64,000 bases of DNA from Vicinamibacterales bacterium (lineage in GTDB: Bacteria; Acidobacteriota; Vicinamibacteria; Vicinamibacterales; JAMQPK01). Position numbers and translations under genes: made by a program. Below, one piece after another: positions 30,456 through 62,403 of the stretch. The notes below the pieces were generated by a model that was not told the DNA's origin, did not search any database, and was given only the letters and a program-made list of their open reading frames with translations. The stretch covers positions 131 to 64,130 of the forward strand of contig DATBJG010000415.1 in the NCBI GenBank assembly GCA_036556585.1, written 5' to 3'. Each line of letters opens with the position of its first letter. The stretch's first letter is position 1.

Positions 30456-31076
30456 ATGGTCATTAGACCAAATAGATCCTCCGCTTTGCTTGTTGGTCTG
30501 CTTCTGGTCAGTCTGACAAGGTGCTCACAGCAGGCGAATCAGAGTGACTTGCAACCGAAGTACGACGCTAAGACCGGGAAACTCGGTCAATTGACTTACG
30601 ACTCAGACTCCAACGGTAAACCTGATGCTGTCAGTTATATGGATGGATCTGAGATCGCGAGGATTGAACTCGACAAGGACGAAGATGGTCTGGTGGATCG
30701 CTGGGAGTACTACGGAACCAATCGACAGCTTGTCAAAGTCGGCATTTCTAGGTCAAATAACGGAAAAGTCGATGCTTGGATTTTTGAAGGAGCCAAGGGT
30801 TCCGTCGACCGCATTGAGATCTCGACGCGCCAGGATGGCAAGGTCAACCGGACCGAGTTCTATGAAAAGGGCGTCCTGACCCGAACCGAGGAAGATACCG
30901 ACGCCAACGGAGTTGTGGACAAGTGGGAGACCTATCGAAACGGCGTCTTGAGCAGCGCAGCATTTGACCTGAACGGCAGCGGCCGTCCTACGCGCCGATT
31001 GACGTATCAGTCGGACGGCAGTCTTCAAGGGGTGGAGACGGACGCCGCTGATCAACCGGCGGTATCACGCCCATGA
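30456..31076 (+). CDS. Putative lipoprotein built from about six DxDxDG-type (Ca-binding-loop-like) repeats
   Basis: The ATG at 30456 gives MVIRPNRSSALLVGLLLVSLTRC followed by 24-aa units such as DKDEDGLVDRWEYY, SRSNNGKVDAWIFE and DTDANGVVDKWETY. The track ORF 29616..31076 is an upstream read-through artefact. The stop overlaps the next gene's start (ATGA). Confidence 0.75.
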   Translation: MVIRPNRSSALLVGLLLVSLTRCSQQANQSDLQPKYDAKTGKLGQLTYDSDSNGKPDAVSYMDGSEIARIELDKDEDGLVDRWEYYGTNRQLVKVGISRSNNGKVDAWIFEGAKGSVDRIEISTRQDGKVNRTEFYEKGVLTRTEEDTDANGVVDKWETYRNGVLSSAAFDLNGSGRPTRRLTYQSDGSLQGVETDAADQPAVSRP

Positions 31077-32062
31077 GCAGCAGCGAGTTCCATACGCAAG
31101 CCTCATCGTCCCGCATGCAAGCGCTCACGCAGCAGGTGGCGAAAGCCGCAGGCGGCCGTGACCATGTCCTGATTACCGGCGAGCCAGGCACGGGCAGGGA
31201 AGCCGTGGCGCGCGAGATTCATCGCCGGTCGTCCGCAACGGCGGGATTCGTCAAGGCGGCAAGCACCCATGCGGCGCTGGAGACGCTGGAGCGCGATCTG
31301 TTTGGCTTCCAGTTGGGTCGCACCGCGGGCGAGGAGCGTCGAAATCTCGAACGGATTGCGAGAGGCGGCCAGTTGCTTGATGCAATTGGCGGAACGCTCT
31401 TCCTCGAACATCTGACCGAAATCCCCGCGCGGATTCAGGCACGTCTGGTGAGGCTGTTCCGAGATCGCGAGGCGATGGTCGTGCAAGACCGCTCCTCGGT
31501 TGGGTTTGACGTGCGCGCGATTGCGGCTGTCGATGCGGCGTACGATCAGGCCGTCGAAGAGGGTCGGGTCAGGGGTGACCTCCATCGGGTGATTTCCGCA
31601 ATTCGCATTGACGTGCCTCCTTTGAGAGAGCGGCGCGAAGATATTCCCGGCCTCGCGGCACATTTTCTGACCGTGATTGGGAGCAGGTCTTCTGTTCCTC
31701 CAAAGACACTCAGCGAACCCGCGCTGCAGCTGCTGACCGCGCTGCCGTGGCCAGGCAACGTGAGAGAACTCGAGCGTCTCTTGACCGGCCTTGCACAGCG
31801 CGTCAAAACCGACGTCATCCGACTGGAGGACGTCCTGTCCAGCATTCAGCTCGATGGCCGCTCCATCCCATCCGCCGCCGGTGGGACGCTGCGTGAGGCA
31901 CGCGCACGGTTCGAGCGAGAGTACATCGCGGCCGCGCTCGATCAACACAGTGGTCGTATTCCGGACGCCGCGCGAATGCTCGGTATTCAGCGCACCAACC
32001 TCTACCGAAAGTTGAAACGCCTCAAGATTCCCATCGACCGACGACGCTCCATCACCCCATAG
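31073..32062 (+). CDS. Sigma54-interaction-domain (AAA+) / Fis-HTH transcriptional regulator with degenerate catalytic motifs and no sensory domain
   Basis: 329 aa. EBP hallmarks are retained: PPLRERREDIPGLAAHF, WPGNVRELERL and the C-terminal HTH AARMLGIQRTNLYRKLKRL. Walker A reads GEPGTGRE, Walker B reads GGTLFLEHL, and the GAFTGA position reads FQLGRTAGE. Confidence 0.8.
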   Translation: MSSSEFHTQASSSRMQALTQQVAKAAGGRDHVLITGEPGTGREAVAREIHRRSSATAGFVKAASTHAALETLERDLFGFQLGRTAGEERRNLERIARGGQLLDAIGGTLFLEHLTEIPARIQARLVRLFRDREAMVVQDRSSVGFDVRAIAAVDAAYDQAVEEGRVRGDLHRVISAIRIDVPPLRERREDIPGLAAHFLTVIGSRSSVPPKTLSEPALQLLTALPWPGNVRELERLLTGLAQRVKTDVIRLEDVLSSIQLDGRSIPSAAGGTLREARARFEREYIAAALDQHSGRIPDAARMLGIQRTNLYRKLKRLKIPIDRRRSITP

Positions 32063-32067
32063 CTTGC

Positions 32068-33066
32068 ATGCCTGACTCAGGCATAGCCGTTGTCTGCGGA
32101 GCTGGCGGCTTCATTGGAGGGCACCTCGTCGGGCACCTCCTGGAGCATCGTCGGTTACGCGTGCGCGCTGTTGACGTCAAGCCGGGTCATCAGTGGCACC
32201 AACGCCACCGCGCTGCCGAAAATCTGGAGCTCGACCTCTCTGAGCTGGGGTCATGCCGTCGTGCCCTGGTCGGAGCTGCTGAGGTCTACAACCTTGCCGC
32301 TGACATGGGGGGCATGGGGTTCATCGAGCGCAACAAGGCGTTGTGCATGCTGAATGTCCTCATTAACACCCATTTGCTCCTGGCAGCGCGCGACGAGCGT
32401 GTGCAGCGGTTCTTCTATGCATCTTCGGCGTGTGTCTACAACGCTTCCCGACAGGCCTCGCCGGAAGTTACACCGCTTCGCGAAGAAGACGCGTACCCCG
32501 CAATGCCGGAAGACGGGTATGGCTGGGAAAAGTTGTTCGGCGAGCGCATGTGCCGTCACTTCGACGAGGACTTTGGTCTGAACACGCGCGTGGCGCGCTA
32601 CCACAACGTGTACGGTCCGTTCGGCGCGTACGACGGCGGCCGCGAAAAGGCTCCTGCGGCAATCTGCCGCAAGGTTATCGAGGCCAAGAGGTCTGGCCGC
32701 CATGAGATTGAAATCTGGGGAACGGGCAACCAGACCCGAAGTTTCACTTACATTGCCGACTGTCTCGAGGGTACCGCCAGGCTGACCGAAAGCACTGTCT
32801 GCGAACCGGTGAACGTGGGGAGTTCCGAGCGGGTGACGATCAACCAGCTTGTCGACATGGTGGAAACCATCGCTGGTATACGGTTGACTCGCCGATACAA
32901 CCTTTCCGCCCCGAATGGTGTCAACGGTCGCAACAGCGACAACACCAAAGTTCGCGCCTTGCTCGGCTGGGAGCCCACGACTCCTCTCGTTTCCGGAATG
33001 GAGGCGACGTATCGGTGGATCCACGACGCGATGCATGTTCCGACCAGAGGTGCCGTGTGCGCCTGA
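32068..33066 (+). CDS. NAD-dependent sugar-nucleotide epimerase closely resembling GDP-mannose 3,5-epimerase
   Basis: 332 aa with a Rossmann motif (GAGGFIGGHL). There are long identities to the plant/bacterial GME pattern as I remember it: NLAADMGGMGFI, RFFYASSACVY, GGREKAPAAICRK, QTRSFTYI, EPVNVGS and NGRNSDN. Confidence 0.72.
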   Translation: MPDSGIAVVCGAGGFIGGHLVGHLLEHRRLRVRAVDVKPGHQWHQRHRAAENLELDLSELGSCRRALVGAAEVYNLAADMGGMGFIERNKALCMLNVLINTHLLLAARDERVQRFFYASSACVYNASRQASPEVTPLREEDAYPAMPEDGYGWEKLFGERMCRHFDEDFGLNTRVARYHNVYGPFGAYDGGREKAPAAICRKVIEAKRSGRHEIEIWGTGNQTRSFTYIADCLEGTARLTESTVCEPVNVGSSERVTINQLVDMVETIAGIRLTRRYNLSAPNGVNGRNSDNTKVRALLGWEPTTPLVSGMEATYRWIHDAMHVPTRGAVCA

Positions 33067-34325
33067 TCGCGGCCGACCGATCGAAGCATTGCATGGTGGC
33101 AGCATGCCTGGCCGTTTTCGTGTCGGCCAGTCAGGCGGCTGCCCAGTCACCACCGGCAGGGGAGCCTCCATCGCCGTTCCAGTTGAAAAGCGGTGCGTTC
33201 ACCGTGACGCCGGCGGTTCGACTCGTGGATGTAGGGGTCGAGACGAACGTCTTCAGTACTGGTGAACGCGCCTCTGATTTCACCGCGACCGTCGAGCCAC
33301 AACTCGAAGCACGAATTCAGCGGACACGTTTCGACGTTCGTGCCACAGGTCGCGCTGGCCTCGTGTACTACCAGGAGTTCGCGAGTGAACGTGCGTTCAA
33401 TCCAGGGGTCCGTCTGCAGGCCGAGCTCCGCAGGAGCTCACGGCTCGCGTTCTATGGCGATGCCGACGTCGGTTATACCAACGGGCGATCAGGCCCAGAG
33501 GTCGATGCGCGGGTCCGCAGTTTCGTCCGGCTGTTCAAGGCTGGAACCCGAATCGGCGGTCACAAGCTGCAGCTTGACGTGAACGGATCGTACACGGACG
33601 TCGAGGTGGACGAATCCGAGGAATTCATGCATGTCCAACTGGAGGACACGCTCAACCGTACTGTGCAACTGGGGTCGGTCAAGCTCCTTCATCACTTGAC
33701 GCCGTACACCGGCTTGACGTTCACGGCCGAAGGACTGCAGCAACGGTTCCCCCGGGCACCCGAACGAGACATTGATTCGGTCAGCGGCACGGTCGGTGTC
33801 GACCTCAGTCCTCAGGCGCTCATTGGCGGGACTGCCGCGATCGGCTATCGCTCGGCGAACCCGTTGCACGACATCACGCCCGAGTTCGCGGGCCTCATTT
33901 ACCGTGGCGGGATCAGCAGTACGGTGCGGGATCGACTCTCCCTGTCGGTCGGCGCCGAGCGCGATATCGATCCTTCGTACCGGTACGACGCGCCGTACTA
34001 CGAGTACGACCTGTACGAGGCCGGCGCGCAACAGGTGCTCTGGCGTCGGCTCGATGTGGGAATCAGCGGGTCTCGCACGAAGATCAAGTATCACGCTTTT
34101 ACAAGCGGTGTGTTCGAGGGTGACACACGCGAAACATTGGACAACCTGACGGTGAGCGTCGGACTGCGCATGACTCGGCACAACCGCGTGTCCGGCTACA
34201 TCTCACAGTGGCGACGTGTGAACGGCGCCAATCCCTACAAAGACATTCAGGTCGGCATGATGGTGACGGTCGGCCGCGTGTCGGTCAGCGAACGTGGCGT
34301 TTTTCTGAACGGTCCCACGAGATGA
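33057..34325 (+). CDS. Secreted protein, candidate outer-membrane beta-barrel associated with polysaccharide export
   Basis: Signal peptide (..MVAACLAVFVSASQAAAQ) followed by about 400 aa of alternating-polarity, Gly/Tyr/Arg-rich segments typical of a barrel. The start is either GTG 33057 or ATG 33093. The stop overlaps the wza start (ATGA). The function is inferred from context. Confidence 0.5.
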   Translation: MRLIAADRSKHCMVAACLAVFVSASQAAAQSPPAGEPPSPFQLKSGAFTVTPAVRLVDVGVETNVFSTGERASDFTATVEPQLEARIQRTRFDVRATGRAGLVYYQEFASERAFNPGVRLQAELRRSSRLAFYGDADVGYTNGRSGPEVDARVRSFVRLFKAGTRIGGHKLQLDVNGSYTDVEVDESEEFMHVQLEDTLNRTVQLGSVKLLHHLTPYTGLTFTAEGLQQRFPRAPERDIDSVSGTVGVDLSPQALIGGTAAIGYRSANPLHDITPEFAGLIYRGGISSTVRDRLSLSVGAERDIDPSYRYDAPYYEYDLYEAGAQQVLWRRLDVGISGSRTKIKYHAFTSGVFEGDTRETLDNLTVSVGLRMTRHNRVSGYISQWRRVNGANPYKDIQVGMMVTVGRVSVSERGVFLNGPTR

Positions 34326-44590: not shown

Positions 44591-45433
44591 GTGGCTGTCG
44601 CAACAGACCGGGACGTCCTCTATATAGAAATCGCGCCCACGGGTCACCGGGGACAGTACTGGCGCGATCTCTGGCACTATCGCGAGCTCTTCTACTTCCT
44701 CGCCTGGCGCGACATTCTGGTCCGGTACAAGCAGACCGTGGCGGGCGTGGCCTGGGCGTGGATCCGACCAGCGGCCACAATGGTCGTGGCGACGACGATC
44801 TTTGGACACGTCGCCAGGCTGCCATCTGGTGACGCCCCGTATCCGATCATGGTTTTCGCGGGGCTGCTCCCGTGGCACCTGTTTGCAAACGCCCTTTCGG
44901 ATTCGGGCGGAAGCCTGATTGGCAATGCCAACCTGATTGCCAAGGTGTACTTCCCGCGCCTGGTGATCCCGGCGAGCAGCATCATTGTTGGACTCGTCGA
45001 CTTCCTGATTGCGGGCGTCCTGTTCCTCGCGGTAACCCTTTGGTACGGCGTGGCACTGACCTGGCGAATCGTGATGCTGCCGTGGTTCGTACTGCTCGTG
45101 CTTGCCGCAGCACTTGGTGCCGGCTTGTGGCTCAGCGCGGTGACCGTCAGATATCGCGACTTTCGATTCGTGGTGCCATTCCTCGTGCAGTTTGGATTCT
45201 TCCTGACGCCCGTGGCGTACAACAGCAGTGCGGTTCCTTTGGATTGGCGGCTATGGCACGCCGCGAATCCCCTCGTCGGCATTGTGGATGGATTCAGATG
45301 GGCGTTGCTTGGCGGTGCGCAGAGTCTCTACTTCCCGTCTCAAGTTTCCGCCGTCGTCGGCGTGGCCGCCATGCTCTTAAGCGGAATCCTGTACTTCCGC
45401 CGCACCGAGCGCTCGTTTGCAGACGTGATTTGA
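44591..45433 (+). CDS. wzm: ABC-2 type polysaccharide/O-antigen export permease (Wzm-like), copy 2
   Basis: 280 aa with a GTG start, YRELFYFLAWRDILVRYKQTVAGVAWAWIRP and six TM segments. Confidence 0.85.
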   Translation: MAVATDRDVLYIEIAPTGHRGQYWRDLWHYRELFYFLAWRDILVRYKQTVAGVAWAWIRPAATMVVATTIFGHVARLPSGDAPYPIMVFAGLLPWHLFANALSDSGGSLIGNANLIAKVYFPRLVIPASSIIVGLVDFLIAGVLFLAVTLWYGVALTWRIVMLPWFVLLVLAAALGAGLWLSAVTVRYRDFRFVVPFLVQFGFFLTPVAYNSSAVPLDWRLWHAANPLVGIVDGFRWALLGGAQSLYFPSQVSAVVGVAAMLLSGILYFRRTERSFADVI

Positions 45434-46752
45434 TGGATCCCGCGATTTCGATTACCGCGCTCTCCAAGCGCTACAGGATTAACGGGTCGAACCCAGGTGA
45501 CGGTCTTCGACACGCAATCAATGAACTTGCTCTGGCGCCCTGGCGCCAGGTGCGACGGCTCGCGGGCCGTCCGTCTCGGTCAATTCCTCCGACATCGACC
45601 CCGCAGGAGTTCTGGGCGCTTCGAGACGTGTCACTTGATGTCGACGAGGGGAAGGTTGTTGGCATTATTGGTCGCAACGGTGCCGGAAAGACCACGCTTC
45701 TGAAGCTCGTCAGTCGGATCACCGCACCAACATCCGGATTCATCAAGCTTCGTGGGAGAGTTGCGAGCCTGCTGGAGGTAGGAACCGGCTTTCATCCGGA
45801 GCTGACCGGGCGCGAGAACGTTTTTCTGAACGGTGCAATTCTCGGAATGAAGAAGGTCGAGATCCAACGCAAGTTCGACGAGATCGTGTCGTTCGCCGAA
45901 ATCGGCGCATTTCTGGACACCCCGGTGAAGCGATACTCGACAGGGATGTACACGCGCCTGGCGTTTTCGATCGCCGCGCACCTCGAATCGGAGATTCTGC
46001 TCGTTGACGAAGTGCTGGCCGTCGGCGACGTGGCTTTTCAGCGAAAGTGTCTCGGAAAAATGAACAGCGTAGCGAGACATGAGGGGCGGACGGTTCTCTT
46101 CGTCAGCCACAACATGGCAGCCGTTACGCAACTCTGCGACCGCGTCGTCCACCTGGAACACGGCCAGATTGTGCGCCAGGGTGTAACGAGCACCGTGGTC
46201 GGCGACTACTTTGCAGCGACGAGCGCGCATGGTGCGTCGCGTCACCTTGCCGGGGTTGACGAAGCGGGAAGAAAGCAGCCGTTGTGGTTCTGTAACGTTG
46301 CCGTCCTTGACGACGAAGGCCGGGAGAATGCCGCTCTGCGATTCGACGCACCGTTTCGAGTTCGGCTGGAGTACGAGGTACCAGAGCCCACGAGTTGGAT
46401 CGAAATGTCGGTTCGACTGCTCACCGCCGATGGGCGTGCGGTTCTGACGACGATGCAATCCGATCTGGCGCCGGAGGTGGTCAGGCAGGTGCGACACGGC
46501 CGGTATGAGATCACAATTCCGTTTCCTGCCCGTTTCCTGATGCCCGGCGACTATGTCATCAACATTGCATCGCACGAGCCAGGTGGCGGGGCACTCTTCG
46601 AGCTGCACGAAAGCGTGATTCGCTTCACGATTGAGGACACGGGGTCCAGCTTTGCCAGGTACGGGAATCATCAAGCCAACGGCCTGGTTGTGATGGACCT
46701 GCCGTGGGACGAACGGCCGTTGAGCAATCACTCGTCCATCGCCATTTCGTAA
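45433..46752 (+). CDS. wzt: Polysaccharide/O-antigen ABC exporter ATP-binding protein (Wzt-like) with C-terminal extension, copy 2
   Basis: The ATG at 45433 (TGATG overlap with wzm) gives MDPAISITALSKRY. Walker A is GRNGAGKTT, the signature is YSTGMYTRLAFS and Walker B is LLVDEVLAVGD. A C-terminal beta-rich domain of about 180 aa follows. The track ORF start at 44872 is an artefactual extension. Confidence 0.88.
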   Translation: MDPAISITALSKRYRINGSNPGDGLRHAINELALAPWRQVRRLAGRPSRSIPPTSTPQEFWALRDVSLDVDEGKVVGIIGRNGAGKTTLLKLVSRITAPTSGFIKLRGRVASLLEVGTGFHPELTGRENVFLNGAILGMKKVEIQRKFDEIVSFAEIGAFLDTPVKRYSTGMYTRLAFSIAAHLESEILLVDEVLAVGDVAFQRKCLGKMNSVARHEGRTVLFVSHNMAAVTQLCDRVVHLEHGQIVRQGVTSTVVGDYFAATSAHGASRHLAGVDEAGRKQPLWFCNVAVLDDEGRENAALRFDAPFRVRLEYEVPEPTSWIEMSVRLLTADGRAVLTTMQSDLAPEVVRQVRHGRYEITIPFPARFLMPGDYVINIASHEPGGGALFELHESVIRFTIEDTGSSFARYGNHQANGLVVMDLPWDERPLSNHSSIAIS

Positions 46753-58473: not shown

Positions 58474-59745
58474 GTGCGCATCCACATCATCGGCATCAAC
58501 TACTGGCCGGAAGCCACCGGCATTGCTGTGTTCACCACAGGCCGTGCGGAGTACCTGGCGGCCTGCGGACACGAGGTGAACATGTGCGCCGCGGTGCCCT
58601 ACTACCCCGAATGGCGAGTCGCAAACGAGTATCGTCGACGCTCATTTGCGGTAGAGCGGCGTGGGGGTGTGAGAATCTTCCGGTGTCCTCTCTATGTCCC
58701 CGCGATTGCGACCACGTTCCGGCGCATTTTGCACGAGGGGTCGTTCGCCCTCGCGGCACTGGCGCGAAGTCTGTCGATGCCTCGCCCCGACGTGCTTCTC
58801 ATCGTGTCACCGCCACTGGGCTTGTCTCTGGTCGCATTCCTGCTGAGTTGCTGGTGGCGTGCGCCGTACGTGTTTCATGTTGCCGATCTTCAGCCAGATA
58901 CGGCGCTGGACCTCGGCATGATGAAGGCGGGCACCGTCGCGCGGTTTCTCTACGCACTGGAGCGATTTGCCTATCGGCATGCCGCCAAGGTGTCGACGTT
59001 GACCGATGCCATGCGCGCGAAAATCCTGGCGAAAGACATACCCCCGAAGAACGTCCTCCTCTTTTCAGATTGGGCCGATCCGCGCCTGTTTGATCTGGAA
59101 CCGGGGCGGCCCGACCCTGAGATCAGGCACGAGCTCAGACTCGACAATGACTTCATTGTTCTGCATGCGGGCAACATGGGCGTCAAGCAGGGGCTTCATG
59201 TGGTGCTCGAGGCGGCGCGGCGTACAAAAGATCCGACGATGCGGTATGTCTTCGTTGGCGATGGGGTGATGAGACACGAACTCGAGGCGCGTGCGCGTGC
59301 CATGAACCTTGCAAACGTGCGGTTTCTGCCGCTGCTGGATCGGGGTCGATTTGAACGCCTGCTCGCGGTCGCAGATCTCTGCCTCGTCACCCAGCAACGG
59401 ACCGTCGCTGACGTCGTGTTTCCTTCGAAGGTTCTTACCCTCCTGGCGGCCGCCAAACCGGTTGTGGCCTCCGTTGCGGCAGCCAGCGAAGTGGCGCGTG
59501 TGGTCAAAGCCGCGGAAGCGGGCGAGGTGGTGGCACCGGAAGATCCGGACCGGCTTGCGCGGGCGATTGCAAAGCTGCGAGGTAGCAAGGCGCGTCGAAG
59601 CCAAATGGCCGAGAGCGGGCGCAATTACGCACGACGGCACTGGGATCGCGACCGAACACTGCAGCATCTGGCAGCAAGACTTGAACGAATCATGGAGTCA
59701 CACCCCCACCGCATGCCTGCGCGCGAGGCGGTTCGTCGTTCATGA
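58474..59745 (+). CDS. Glycosyltransferase family 4, WcaI/WbuB-like
   Basis: GTG start giving MRIHIIGINYWPEATGIAVFTTGRAEYLAACGHEV (a WcaI-type N-terminus). Also IVLHAGNMGVKQGL and VVFPSKVLTLLAAAKPVVA. Confidence 0.85.
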   Translation: MRIHIIGINYWPEATGIAVFTTGRAEYLAACGHEVNMCAAVPYYPEWRVANEYRRRSFAVERRGGVRIFRCPLYVPAIATTFRRILHEGSFALAALARSLSMPRPDVLLIVSPPLGLSLVAFLLSCWWRAPYVFHVADLQPDTALDLGMMKAGTVARFLYALERFAYRHAAKVSTLTDAMRAKILAKDIPPKNVLLFSDWADPRLFDLEPGRPDPEIRHELRLDNDFIVLHAGNMGVKQGLHVVLEAARRTKDPTMRYVFVGDGVMRHELEARARAMNLANVRFLPLLDRGRFERLLAVADLCLVTQQRTVADVVFPSKVLTLLAAAKPVVASVAAASEVARVVKAAEAGEVVAPEDPDRLARAIAKLRGSKARRSQMAESGRNYARRHWDRDRTLQHLAARLERIMESHPHRMPAREAVRRS

Positions 59746-61889
59746 CAGTCACCGCGGTGACGTACGCGTCAGTGCCATGGCGACTGGAAGGACGTACGCC
59801 AGGCAGAGTGCTGTTGGTGCTTGTATCGTGGGGAACGTTGCTCTTTGGCGCGGTGTACCCATGGTCCTATGTTCCGCTGCTGAGCGCCGCGGTGATCTTC
59901 GGCCTCTTCGGGTGGCTGAGTGCGACCGCCGAGCAAAAAGCAGGGGCGATGCCAATTCTGATGGCCTTGCTGCTTGTGGCGGTTGTCGTCGTCATTCAAC
60001 TGATACCACTGCCGGTTGCATGGGTCGCGCGATTGAGCGGAGCCGCAGACGGCCTCTTGCGAGAGTACGACCTCGCGTACGGCATGGCGCGGGCGGCCGG
60101 TGATCAGCCTTGGCATGCAATGTCGATCTCGCCGGCGGCAACCGCCCGAGGGCTGTCGTTTCTGATTGCACTGGGTGTGTTCCTGGCGGGCTGCACGGTC
60201 TTGCTGCCGCGCATGTCAATGATCTGGCTGGTCCGTCGGCTGGTTGCGCTTGGAGTGGCTGTTGCGATTTTTGGCATCCTCCAGCGGCTGACATTCAACG
60301 ACCGGATTTACTGGGTCTGGACGCCCGTGAACGTCGCGAGCAACACGTTTGGCCCGTTCGTCAATCGAAATCACTTCGCAACCTGGATGCTGATGTTGAG
60401 TGCTCTGACTTCTGGCTACTTGTGTGGTCTGCTGGCAGAGGCCGCATCGCCAGCATCCAAATCGTGGCGCGACCGGGCGGCCTGGCTTTCGTCCAGCCGT
60501 ACCAACGAGATATTCCTCGCAGGTTGCAGTCTGGTGCTGATGCTCCTGTCCATTGTCTGGACGCTGTCGCGTTCGGGCATGGCCGCCGCCCTTACGTCCG
60601 CCATTCTCGTGTCGATGGGCTCGATGTTGCGACTGCGGGGCATCCGGCGGTTTGTGGCGGCCGGGTCCGTAATCGCGGCCCTGGCTGTAGCCGTCTTCTG
60701 GAGGGGGACGGGCGACGTCATCGAATGGTTCAGTCGCACCTCCAGCCTCGCCTGGCGGTTCCAGTTGTGGCAGGACACATGGCCAATCGTCCGTGACTTT
60801 CCGTGGTGGGGGACCGGCCTCAATACCTATGGCGTGTCCACGCTCCTCTATCCGATGACCGATGGCAACTGGCATCCGAACGAGGCGCATAGCGACTATT
60901 TGCAACTGCTGAGCGAGGGTGGCGTGGTGCTCGTTGTGGCCGTCATTGCCGCGGTCACAACGGTCACGTGGCGTGTTTACCGCGCGTTCCGACAACCGCA
61001 ACGTACGCTAACCCGGTGGATCCGACTCGGTGCGGTCAGTGGCCTTGTGGCTGTGGCGATTCAGGAGAGCGTGGACTTCGGCCTGCAGATGCCCGGTAAC
61101 GCCACGATGTTTGTCGTGCTGCTGGCAATTGCGCTTCACGATGGACGAGGCAGAATGCATCCTCTGTCGCCTGTCTCACCGAGCCCGAGTCCGGTCTGGA
61201 TTTCCCAATCTGGCGGGCGACGCACGATTGCCGCGACGGGGATGTCACTTATTGCCGTGATAGTCGCAGGTTGCGGCACGCCGCCCACGCGTACTGATCT
61301 GCAGGTTGTTCGCCCCGGCGTCAGAGCGCAGTATCACGAGACAACAGGACGACTGCGCCTGCTCGAATTCGACGCCGACAAGAATGGCGCCGCAGACTCG
61401 ATCGCGCACATGGATGGCGCGCGTGTTCTGTTCATCGAGGTCGACGCCGACGAAGATGGAACAGTCGATCGATGGGACTACTACACACCCGAACGCAAGA
61501 TTGAAAAGACCGGCCTCGCGCGAGCGCGAGATGGAAAGCTCGATACGTGGATCGTGGAAGGCTCGAACGGCGCGGTAGAGCGTGTGGAGGTCTCCACGCA
61601 CCGTGATGGGGTGCCCAATCGCGTGGAGTACTTTGACGCCGGTCGACTGATACGGAGCGAAGAAGACACCAACGCAGACGGGCGCATCGACAAATGGGAA
61701 ACCTATCGCCTGCTGCCTGGAGGAAGTCCAAGCAACCCATTCGCGTATGCCGTCGCGACAGCGGCGTTCGATTTTTCTGCTCGCGGCAGGCCAGAGCGTC
61801 GGTTCATTTACTCACCTACCGGAGGAATCGAGCGGGTTGAGGTCGACCCCGACGGTCGCGGAATATTTGTCACGGTTTCAACCCGGTAA
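59742..61889 (+). CDS. O-antigen ligase family (Wzy_C domain) membrane protein fused to a C-terminal DxDxDG-repeat domain
   Basis: 715 aa. Residues 1-470 are polytopic with GPFVNRNHFATW, LSRSG, WWGTGLNTY and NEAHSDYLQLLSEGG. From Cys511 onward the sequence is a paralogue of the lipoprotein at 30456-31076 (EVDADEDGTVDRWDYY, DTNADGRIDKWETY). Confidence 0.8.
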   Translation: MTVTAVTYASVPWRLEGRTPGRVLLVLVSWGTLLFGAVYPWSYVPLLSAAVIFGLFGWLSATAEQKAGAMPILMALLLVAVVVVIQLIPLPVAWVARLSGAADGLLREYDLAYGMARAAGDQPWHAMSISPAATARGLSFLIALGVFLAGCTVLLPRMSMIWLVRRLVALGVAVAIFGILQRLTFNDRIYWVWTPVNVASNTFGPFVNRNHFATWMLMLSALTSGYLCGLLAEAASPASKSWRDRAAWLSSSRTNEIFLAGCSLVLMLLSIVWTLSRSGMAAALTSAILVSMGSMLRLRGIRRFVAAGSVIAALAVAVFWRGTGDVIEWFSRTSSLAWRFQLWQDTWPIVRDFPWWGTGLNTYGVSTLLYPMTDGNWHPNEAHSDYLQLLSEGGVVLVVAVIAAVTTVTWRVYRAFRQPQRTLTRWIRLGAVSGLVAVAIQESVDFGLQMPGNATMFVVLLAIALHDGRGRMHPLSPVSPSPSPVWISQSGGRRTIAATGMSLIAVIVAGCGTPPTRTDLQVVRPGVRAQYHETTGRLRLLEFDADKNGAADSIAHMDGARVLFIEVDADEDGTVDRWDYYTPERKIEKTGLARARDGKLDTWIVEGSNGAVERVEVSTHRDGVPNRVEYFDAGRLIRSEEDTNADGRIDKWETYRLLPGGSPSNPFAYAVATAAFDFSARGRPERRFIYSPTGGIERVEVDPDGRGIFVTVSTR

Positions 61890-61908: not shown

Positions 61909-62403
61909 ATGAAGCGTTTTCTCGCACTCGCACTTATCGTGGCCTGCACGCTTCCGACCGTCCCTGACGGTCGTCGCAGCGTGCATGCCCAATCGCTCGG
62001 GGTGATCTCGGGCTCAGCCCAGGGACCAGATGGCTCTATTGAAGGCGCACCGGTCGAATTACTAGACCCAGCGGGAAACGTCGTCGCACGGACGACGACG
62101 AATGCCGCCGGGATGTTCAACTTTCTTGGACTGCTGGCCGGCAACTACGTGGTGCAGATGCTGGGCATCAACGGTGCGACGGTTGCCACCTCGATCGTTG
62201 CTCTCACACCAGAGGTGATGTCGGAAACGGTCCCGTTGACCGCATCTGCGGCGGATATCGCGGCGGCCGGTGGCGTTGGCGGCGAGGAGTCGAGAAGGCG
62301 CCGACGGGCAGCAGCGTTGATCCTGGGCGCGGCGGCAGCCGCAGCCGGCACTGTCGGCGTCGGCATCATCTCCACCAGGGACGACGCGAGCCCTTCACGG
62401 TAA
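61909..62403 (+). CDS. Small secreted or lipid-anchored protein with a carboxypeptidase-regulatory-like beta-sandwich and an unusual basic/hydrophobic C-terminus
   Basis: The ATG at 61909 follows GAGGGA. The signal peptide is MKRFLALALIVAC. The core GVISGSAQGPDGSIEGAPVELLDPAGNVVARTTTNAAGMFNFLGLLAGNYVV fits the CarboxypepD_reg pattern. The tail is EESRRRRRAAALILGAAAAAAGTVGVGIISTRDD. Confidence 0.55.
   Translation: MKRFLALALIVACTLPTVPDGRRSVHAQSLGVISGSAQGPDGSIEGAPVELLDPAGNVVARTTTNAAGMFNFLGLLAGNYVVQMLGINGATVATSIVALTPEVMSETVPLTASAADIAAAGGVGGEESRRRRRAAALILGAAAAAAGTVGVGIISTRDDASPSR

Follow-up and report, generated by a model that had tools for sequence, protein, structure and literature searches.

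A 64,000-nucleotide stretch of a Vicinamibacterales bacterium genome (contig DATBJG010000415.1 of assembly GCA_036556585.1; hereafter the window) carries an open reading frame (ORF) that joins a Wzy_C/WaaL-like glycan ligase to a lipoprotein precursor. The fusion of the two, and the homology of the lipobox at their junction with the lipoboxes of a stand-alone protein family, are established below by comparison with relatives. We tentatively propose, with confidence just short of even, that Acidobacteria make a two-protein precursor, ligase and lipoprotein in one chain, which would be split at its internal lipobox by Lgt and signal peptidase II (SPII) and which may have arisen at least two times independently and been kept by selection. 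Feature coordinates are collected in Table 1.

The ATG of the fusion ORF overlaps the stop codon of the upstream glycosyltransferase family 4 (GT4) gene (58474..59745). An initial annotation of the window, made from the sequence, had drawn attention to the junction peptide MHPLSPVSPSPSPVWISQSGGRRTIAATGMSLIAVIVAGC, and every element of it was found where it had been placed: Met472 (ATG, 61155-61157), R493-R494, the hydrophobic run with Met501 (ATG, 61242-61244), and V-A-G-C511 (61263-61274), in which codon 511 is TGC (61272-61274). The accompanying claim, that the ORF is a Wzy_C ligase fused to a lipoprotein precursor, is supported from both sides: ligase orthologues are shorter than the ORF, and its C-terminal domain corresponds to a family of stand-alone lipoproteins.

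On the ligase side, the Pfam family Wzy_C (PF04932) matches aa 263-401 with E=5e-23 and 82 bits, against a gathering cut-off of 31.7. The AlphaFold2 (AF2) model of the full protein (predicted local distance difference test score, pLDDT, 89.9) has 12 transmembrane (TM) helices at aa 18-465, with a pLDDT of ~95 in the ligase part, and the best Protein Data Bank (PDB) structural match of the ligase model is WaaL 7tpg (probability 1.00, TM-score 0.55). H378, R339, E381 and H383, in the large periplasmic loop, are invariant. An NCBIfam search with the fusion ORF returned nothing above cut-offs; the exosortase-A-associated ligase model TIGR03097 scored 30.5 bits against a cut-off of 188.1. The protein resembles the WaaL/O-antigen ligase family in its above-threshold PF04932 match, its 12-TM fold and its position closing a glycosyltransferase operon in which a Wzt-type ABC transporter gene is also found; it differs by one additional membrane segment and by a periplasmic beta domain of 204 aa. 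It is a Wzy_C member by every test run, and ligase activity is predicted. Orthologues were checked for a stop codon at the junction: over 100 unfused ligases (<=54% identity) are 460-520 aa long and stop 15-45 residues beyond TM12. A different fusion occurs in the same ligase family, P0046 (914 aa), in which GT4 domains (PF00534, PF13579, PF13692) are joined to the Wzy_C module; in the window the counterparts of its fused parts are adjoining, overlapping genes, 58474..59745 and the one that begins at 59742.

Both termini of the ligase module are probably cytoplasmic. For the C-terminus we infer this because the number of helices is even and because, by positive-inside loop counts, a K/R-rich loop precedes TM11 and HDGRGR comes after TM12; the C-terminus of the WaaL in 7tpg is reportedly cytoplasmic as well. 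Given a cytoplasmic ligase C-terminus, the linker that follows would also be cytoplasmic, the RR-hydrophobic-VAGC segment would run from inside to outside, as a signal peptide does, and the domain behind it would be periplasmic.

That domain, the last 204 aa, has more than 140 stand-alone homologues, nearly all of 180-250 aa. Modelled alone (AF2, 117 sequences), the mature domain reaches pLDDT 94.9 and forms 15 strands in hairpins; its Foldseek matches are Rhs/YD repeats, OspA and the TarM/SdgB beta-meander, with no enzyme fold among them. It contains three DxDxDG-type loops (DADKNGAAD, DADEDGTVD and DTNADGRID). For the C-terminal 200 aa, only sub-threshold matches to EF-hand_5 (Pfam) and Lsa25.6 were found, and a PDB sequence search gave only weak EF-hand-loop matches. 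The likeness to DUF6802 and other EF-hand-loop repeat lipoproteins, including those described by the Leptospira Lsa25.6 model NF050087, consists of a repeated DxDxDGxxD-W hairpin motif, the small size of these lipoproteins and weak profile matches; the difference is that all the matches are far below the family cut-offs, at 16-32 bits against 150, or 25-30 against 27 for some homologues only.

The link between ORF and lipoproteins is made by Cys511. Of the 116 stand-alone homologues aligned, 109 have Cys in its column, preceded by A or G at -1, and most of the others are truncated at the N-terminus; in the stand-alone proteins this Cys lies 15-30 residues from the N-terminus, after a hydrophobic run, and the h-region of the ORF aligns with their signal peptides. 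It follows from this homology that the ORF ends in an entire lipoprotein precursor together with its signal peptide. Homology is also what makes the lipobox meaningful, because the bare pattern is not beyond chance: a PS51257-like regular expression run over 117 unfused ligase homologues gave 54 internal matches, about 1 per 1000 residues, and a match to the expression was accordingly rejected as evidence. The window protein itself has a second lipobox-like match, LIALGVFLAGC, ending in Cys151 (60192..60194) inside TM4, and the equivalent helix in several orthologues carries similar chance patterns (e.g. FLVGC, FTTGC), which is a caution for pattern-based lipoprotein calls.

Compared with Sec/SPII lipoprotein precursors (Lgt, LspA; PS51257-type), the window segment has the charged n-region, the uncharged core, the V-A-G-C and the small residues after Cys: R493-R494 is followed by 16 uncharged residues up to Cys511, and hydropathy peaks at 2.04 at aa 493-514. 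It is, moreover, homologous to the signal peptides of over 100 stand-alone family members. The difference is one of place. Such signals are N-terminal, with the Cys within about the first 40 residues, whereas the window signal lies 510 residues into a polytopic protein, after a linker of ~27 aa; Cys511 would be residue 40 only given a translation start at Met472. Judged by sequence features, the segment has everything that belongs to an SPII signal except the defining N-terminal position. A twin-arginine (Tat) signal was considered and rejected, since the RR is not conserved (RQ in P0002, RPR in L001).

The lineage of the window, which we call clade A, consists of six sequences at 72-91% identity: the window ORF, P0001 (91%), P0002 (76%), P0003 (83%), P0122 and L001 (72%). 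P0001 and P0002 are full-length relatives; P0003 is cut by a contig end, and P0122 is a fragment. The same unbroken frame is present in P0001, P0002, P0003, P0122 and the metagenome-assembled genome (MAG) contig L001, that is, in at least five independent assemblies. None of the six sequences departs from A-G-C or from the GTPPTR behind it, and among the four clade-A DNA sequences the nine codons of AGC-GTPPTR show synonymous differences only (GGT/GGA, TGC/TGT). The linker has a mean pairwise identity of 45% with 2 of 27 columns invariant in the six fused sequences, its first part aligning with the tails of unfused ligases; the h-region has 48% identity and 1 invariant column of 14, and its hydrophobicity is nonetheless retained. 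Genome and metagenome scans for further clade-A members yielded only the fragment L091, which does not include the junction, and many stand-alone genes.

L001 (ENA ERZ25039555 contig_49433) is a syntenic, 420-kb contig with many frameshifts, which split its genes into pieces of 50-250 aa, and gene calls from it, such as P0125 (139 aa), are fragments. Against the window it shows 69 gap openings over 6.6 kb and is probably a long-read assembly with indel errors.

Two further fused clades were found by an exhaustive profile-free search of 1.84 billion representatives. Matches across both modules were P0241 (693 aa, 40% identity) and, at 33-38%, five other proteins. Searching with P0241 then brought out clade B, whose 13 fused proteins have identities of 52-90%; one of them is annotated at NCBI as 'O-antigen ligase family protein'. 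The clade-B sequence between TM12 and the Cys is 29-65 residues long and essentially unalignable; all 13 proteins nevertheless have, in the Cys511 column, the end of a K/R-preceded hydrophobic run closing in [A/G]-C. Clade C has instead a transmembrane anchor without Cys, with 19-20 uncharged residues and a conserved AGVxAYRxxGxYG motif. In the clade-C fusions P0273, P0301, P0341, P0350 and P0370 the anchor ends in AGV-x-AYR-xx-G-x-YG, which suggests a specific packing or recognition role for the motif rather than a generic helix. The uncharged run has 13-20 residues in the lipobox fusions and 19-20 in the TM anchors, ranges that overlap.

In a ligase-only tree (neighbour-joining, distance-based and rough) A, B and C are separate groups, with A and B next to or among unfused ligases and C basal; the fusion therefore arose at least three times. 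A precursor state for clade B is visible in the MAGs L015, L019 and L020, where stop codons and ~250 bp separate the ligase from a lipoprotein gene that has a start of its own; P0475, the ligase of L020, shares 50% identity with P0241. Three arrangements are thus represented: genes side by side, a fusion that retains an intact, conserved lipobox, and a fusion through a plain TM anchor.

The initial annotation had named a uniform lack of the lipobox in orthologues as evidence against its reading. The opposite is seen: the Cys, with A or G at -1, is kept in 19 of 19 lipobox-type fusions (6 in clade A and 13 in clade B), amid fast-evolving segments. A Cys without purpose can be lost by one substitution, and its retention in all 19 proteins, from two independent fusions, argues that it is under selection. 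The likeliest and simplest reading of these comparisons, to which we give about an even chance, is that Lgt and LspA still use the lipobox.

The chain comprises a WaaL-like 12-TM ligase, with a probably cytoplasmic C-terminus, and a complete lipoprotein precursor. During insertion the former signal peptide (R493-R494, hydrophobic core, V-A-G-C511) would span the membrane in the in-to-out direction, serving as segment 13, and would export the 204-aa domain, with its beta-hairpins and Ca-loops, to the periplasm. If the lipobox is used, Lgt would lipidate Cys511, and LspA would then cut before it. A single translation start would yield, in a 1:1 ratio, a 55.3-kDa ligase with the signal peptide retained as its C-terminal helix and a mature lipoprotein of 22.9 kDa: a polyprotein resolved by signal peptidase II. 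In the AF2 model aa 482-516 have pLDDT <50 and are not modelled as a packed helix, which is compatible with a signal peptide but is weak evidence. The neighbourhood of the stand-alone genes, most of which adjoin the gene for a BBP2_2 outer-membrane barrel, fits a lipoprotein that needs release from the inner membrane.

Polyproteins of a related kind are known. The FbcH cytochrome b-c1 precursor of Bradyrhizobium is resolved at an internal signal peptide, and hepatitis C virus (HCV) provides another case. Host signal peptidase cleaves at signal peptides internal to the polyprotein, both in the core-E1 region of this virus and among the structural proteins of flaviviruses (PMC5402940, PMC7601889). 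As in these systems, in the window protein an internal membrane signal placed after an upstream module would export the downstream module, and a cut at the luminal or periplasmic end would separate the two. The enzyme in the known cases is type I signal peptidase, whereas the window has a type II site, which needs prior lipidation and whose cleavage is predicted.

Several observations weigh against processing at the lipobox. Literature searches for Lgt or LspA acting on a signal peptide after a polytopic domain, or for an SPII-resolved polyprotein, turned up no documented case. The clade-C fusions, with their Cys-less anchor, indicate that a permanently tethered state is viable. P0124, the closest stand-alone sister of the fused domains, has lost the Cys and has an A-L-A signal-peptidase-I-like site instead, so a lipid anchor is not essential to the domain. 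The conserved block of clade A runs into the mature N-terminus, and AGC conservation could in part be a domain-boundary effect in a shallow clade. Finally, the alignment behind the full-length AF2 model misplaced some signal peptides, which makes the low confidence at the junction weak evidence.

The strongest alternative is an uncleaved tether: the former signal peptide would be a 13th TM helix by which the periplasmic domain stays attached to the ligase, and the lipobox would be an unprocessed relic or be conserved for packing. We give this distinctly less than an even chance, while regarding it as a serious contender. Clade C offers ready examples of such anchors, Cys-less and with 19-20 uncharged residues; the lipid is dispensable, as P0124 shows; and repeated fusion suggests that nearness to the ligase is useful. 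There is also a precedent in OpuA-type ABC importers, whose substrate-binding domain, a partner that is lipid-anchored or soluble elsewhere, is fused to the membrane domain via an anchoring helix (PMC11065425). There, too, an extracytoplasmic partner is joined to the C-terminus of a membrane partner by an extra TM segment and a poorly conserved linker, and the window ORF has this layout: 12 helices, a linker with RR, a hydrophobic segment and a beta domain. The protein families are unrelated, however, and the anchor of OpuA is a plain helix without a processing site, whereas the window ORF carries an intact, complete and conserved lipobox. A Cys that is only a relic would be expected to disappear, but all 19 proteins from the two independent fusions have it, in surroundings that are 45-48% identical (clade A) or unalignable (clade B). 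What Lgt is known to recognise in its substrates is a canonical lipobox at the outer end of a hydrophobic segment that runs in-to-out, and a tether would require a special reason for such a lipobox to escape modification.

The initial annotation had also raised the possibility of two products through internal initiation, with ribosomes starting additionally at Met472 (61155) or Met501 (61242) and so producing, in addition to the full-length fusion, a lipoprotein precursor on its own. This we consider improbable, because the variation of both codons among relatives, the Shine-Dalgarno data and the clade-B junctions speak against it. Met472 is the better candidate: the codon at 61155 is ATG, ATG, GTG and GTG in the four available clade-A DNA sequences, a GAGG 4 nt upstream gives a duplex energy of -5.9 kcal/mol, comparable with real starts in the window, and initiation there would put the Cys at residue 40, within the range of some stand-alone homologues. 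P0122, however, has ATT (Ile) at this position, the Shine-Dalgarno score is equalled at 11.5% of random positions, Met472 aligns with the R-x-R-P C-terminal tail of unfused ligases, and a promoter scan found no promoter-like site nearby. In place of Met501 relatives have Leu, Thr or Leu; no Shine-Dalgarno sequence precedes it (-1.5 kcal/mol), and a start there would leave a signal of 10 aa that lacks a charged n-region. In 9 of the 13 clade-B fusions there is no Met at all between TM12 and the Cys. Internal initiation is thus unsupported and unnecessary, and for the window gene it has a small probability.

An artefact or chance, in the form of a sequencing or assembly frameshift that joined two genes or of a helix that happens to match the lipobox pattern, might be suspected from the frameshifts of L001 and from the 54 patterns in 117 homologues and the one at Cys151, but it is refuted by the comparative data: the frame is uninterrupted in at least five independent assemblies at 72-91% identity and in 13 clade-B proteins, the L001 frameshifts lie away from the junction, and Cys511 shares its ancestry with the lipobox Cys found in stand-alone members of the family.

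As for the origin of the fusion, the initial annotation had suggested a recent joining of the ligase to a downstream gene. The first part stands, the fusion being shallow in the window lineage (>=72% identity); the second has to be qualified, since in the closest unfused orthologues, L005 and L006, the gene downstream of the ligase encodes an unrelated, cytoplasmic NT5C-like protein. L005 and L006 share with the window the upstream GT2-GT4 genes and the downstream Dabb gene. Simple stop-codon loss between neighbours is therefore not supported for this lineage; a ligase gene with a lipoprotein gene next to it occurs only in the more distant MAGs L015, L019 and L020. When a shift in GC content, overall or at third codon positions (GC3), was sought as a mark of foreign origin, no clear anomaly was seen.

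The window also contains a resident stand-alone paralogue of the fused domain, which heads the export operon and whose stop codon overlaps the start of a sigma-54 activator gene. It occupies the canonical position, SurA-NusG-Dus-lipoprotein-sigma54, as in L009. It starts MVIRPNRSSALLVGLLLVSLTRCSQ and has Arg before its Cys (L-T-R-C), which is unusual for a lipobox, where G, A or S is the norm at -1. A rough tree places the fused domains first with P0124 and next with a group of P0126, P0127 and P0132, apart from the resident copy; on this different branch and the identity of 43%, the idea that the fused domain is a recent duplicate of the resident copy was rejected.

Downstream of the fusion lies a gene for a CarboxypepD_reg-like secreted protein. 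It follows the clade-A fusion always, including in L012 and on the P0003 contig, and so travels with the fused-domain lineage. The P0124 gene is likewise followed by a CarboxypepD_reg homologue; because the fused domains group with P0124, a two-gene module (domain and CarboxypepD_reg) appears to have been placed after the ligase and its first gene then joined to the ligase. The CarboxypepD_reg-like proteins after the fused domain and after P0124 (857..1339 of L002) share a C-terminus with an Arg run, a hydrophobic helix and a conserved ...ASPSR end. This arrangement resembles a signal for sorting or anchoring, although neither its order nor its motif is that of PEP-CTERM.

The genes commonly found beside the stand-alone ones encode a sigma-54 activator (its start overlapping the stop of the lipoprotein gene), the BBP2_2 barrel, Poly_export and Wzz/GNVR; the family of the fused domain normally heads acidobacterial polysaccharide-export operons. 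The overlap of the activator's ATG with the lipoprotein stop recurs in many Acidobacteriota loci (L009, L011, L014-L052), and the pairing suggests that expression of a cytoplasmic regulator is coupled to that of a periplasmic lipoprotein. The window from ~30.4 to 62.4 kb is one very large polysaccharide locus. It also holds more than 12 glycosyltransferases, 3 methyltransferases, an acyltransferase and a hexapeptide transferase, and its export genes together with the Wzt-type ATPase place both Wza/Wzc-type and ABC-transporter-type components in the locus.

Table 1. Positions in the window of the fusion ORF, its parts and the neighbouring genes discussed
Feature	Position	Strand	Description
Complete fusion ORF	59742..61889	+	715 aa, 78.2 kDa, without internal stop
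Wzy_C/WaaL-like glycan ligase module	59742..61139	+	aa 1-466; 12 TM helices; PF04932; AF2 model
Pro/Ser-rich linker	61140..61220	+	aa 467-493; probably cytoplasmic; contains Met472, ends with R493
Former signal-peptide core	61221..61262	+	aa 494-507; R494 and hydrophobic h-region TIAATGMSLIAVI; contains Met501
Lipobox V-A-G-C	61263..61274	+	aa 508-511; Cys codon 61272-61274; agrees with the lipobox pattern [LVI][ASTVI][GAS]-C
Tryptic peptide across the junction			TIAATGMSLIAVIVAGCGTPPTR
Mature domain	61275..61889	+	aa 512-715 plus stop; all-beta hairpin-repeat; probably periplasmic
CarboxypepD_reg/SdrD_B-like secreted protein, downstream companion	61909..62403	+	164 aa; Pfam
Resident stand-alone paralogue of fused domain	30456..31076	+	206 aa; 43% identical; tblastn, ORF reading, tree
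Sigma-54 activator	31073..32062	+	329 aa; AAA+ and HTH_8 domains only, without receiver or sensor domain
BBP2_2 (export gene)	33015..34325		
Poly_export (export gene)	~34469		
Wzz (export gene)	~35380		
GNVR kinase (export gene)	~36364		
Wzt-type ABC ATPase	44872..46752		with Wzt_C domain

Cut or not, the three independent fusions and the three cases of adjacency tie the lipoprotein family to the Wzy_C enzyme and imply, by Rosetta-stone inference, that the two work together. The partner so tied belongs to a widespread, uncharacterised lipoprotein family that heads Wza/Wzc/beta-barrel export operons in Vicinamibacteria-like Acidobacteria, which provides a lead on surface polysaccharide assembly in abundant soil bacteria. 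The gradient of states, from neighbours through lipobox fusion to plain anchor, is useful for studying how signal peptides turn into TM helices. If the lipobox is used, lipoprotein maturation enzymes would act on signals that come after 12 TM helices, widening the substrate definition used by predictors: an N-terminal signal would not be required by Lgt and LspA, and predictors that look at the N-terminus only would miss a substrate class. The fusion would then be the first described SPII-resolved polyprotein and a bacterial counterpart to the viral polyproteins that are cut at internal signal peptides.

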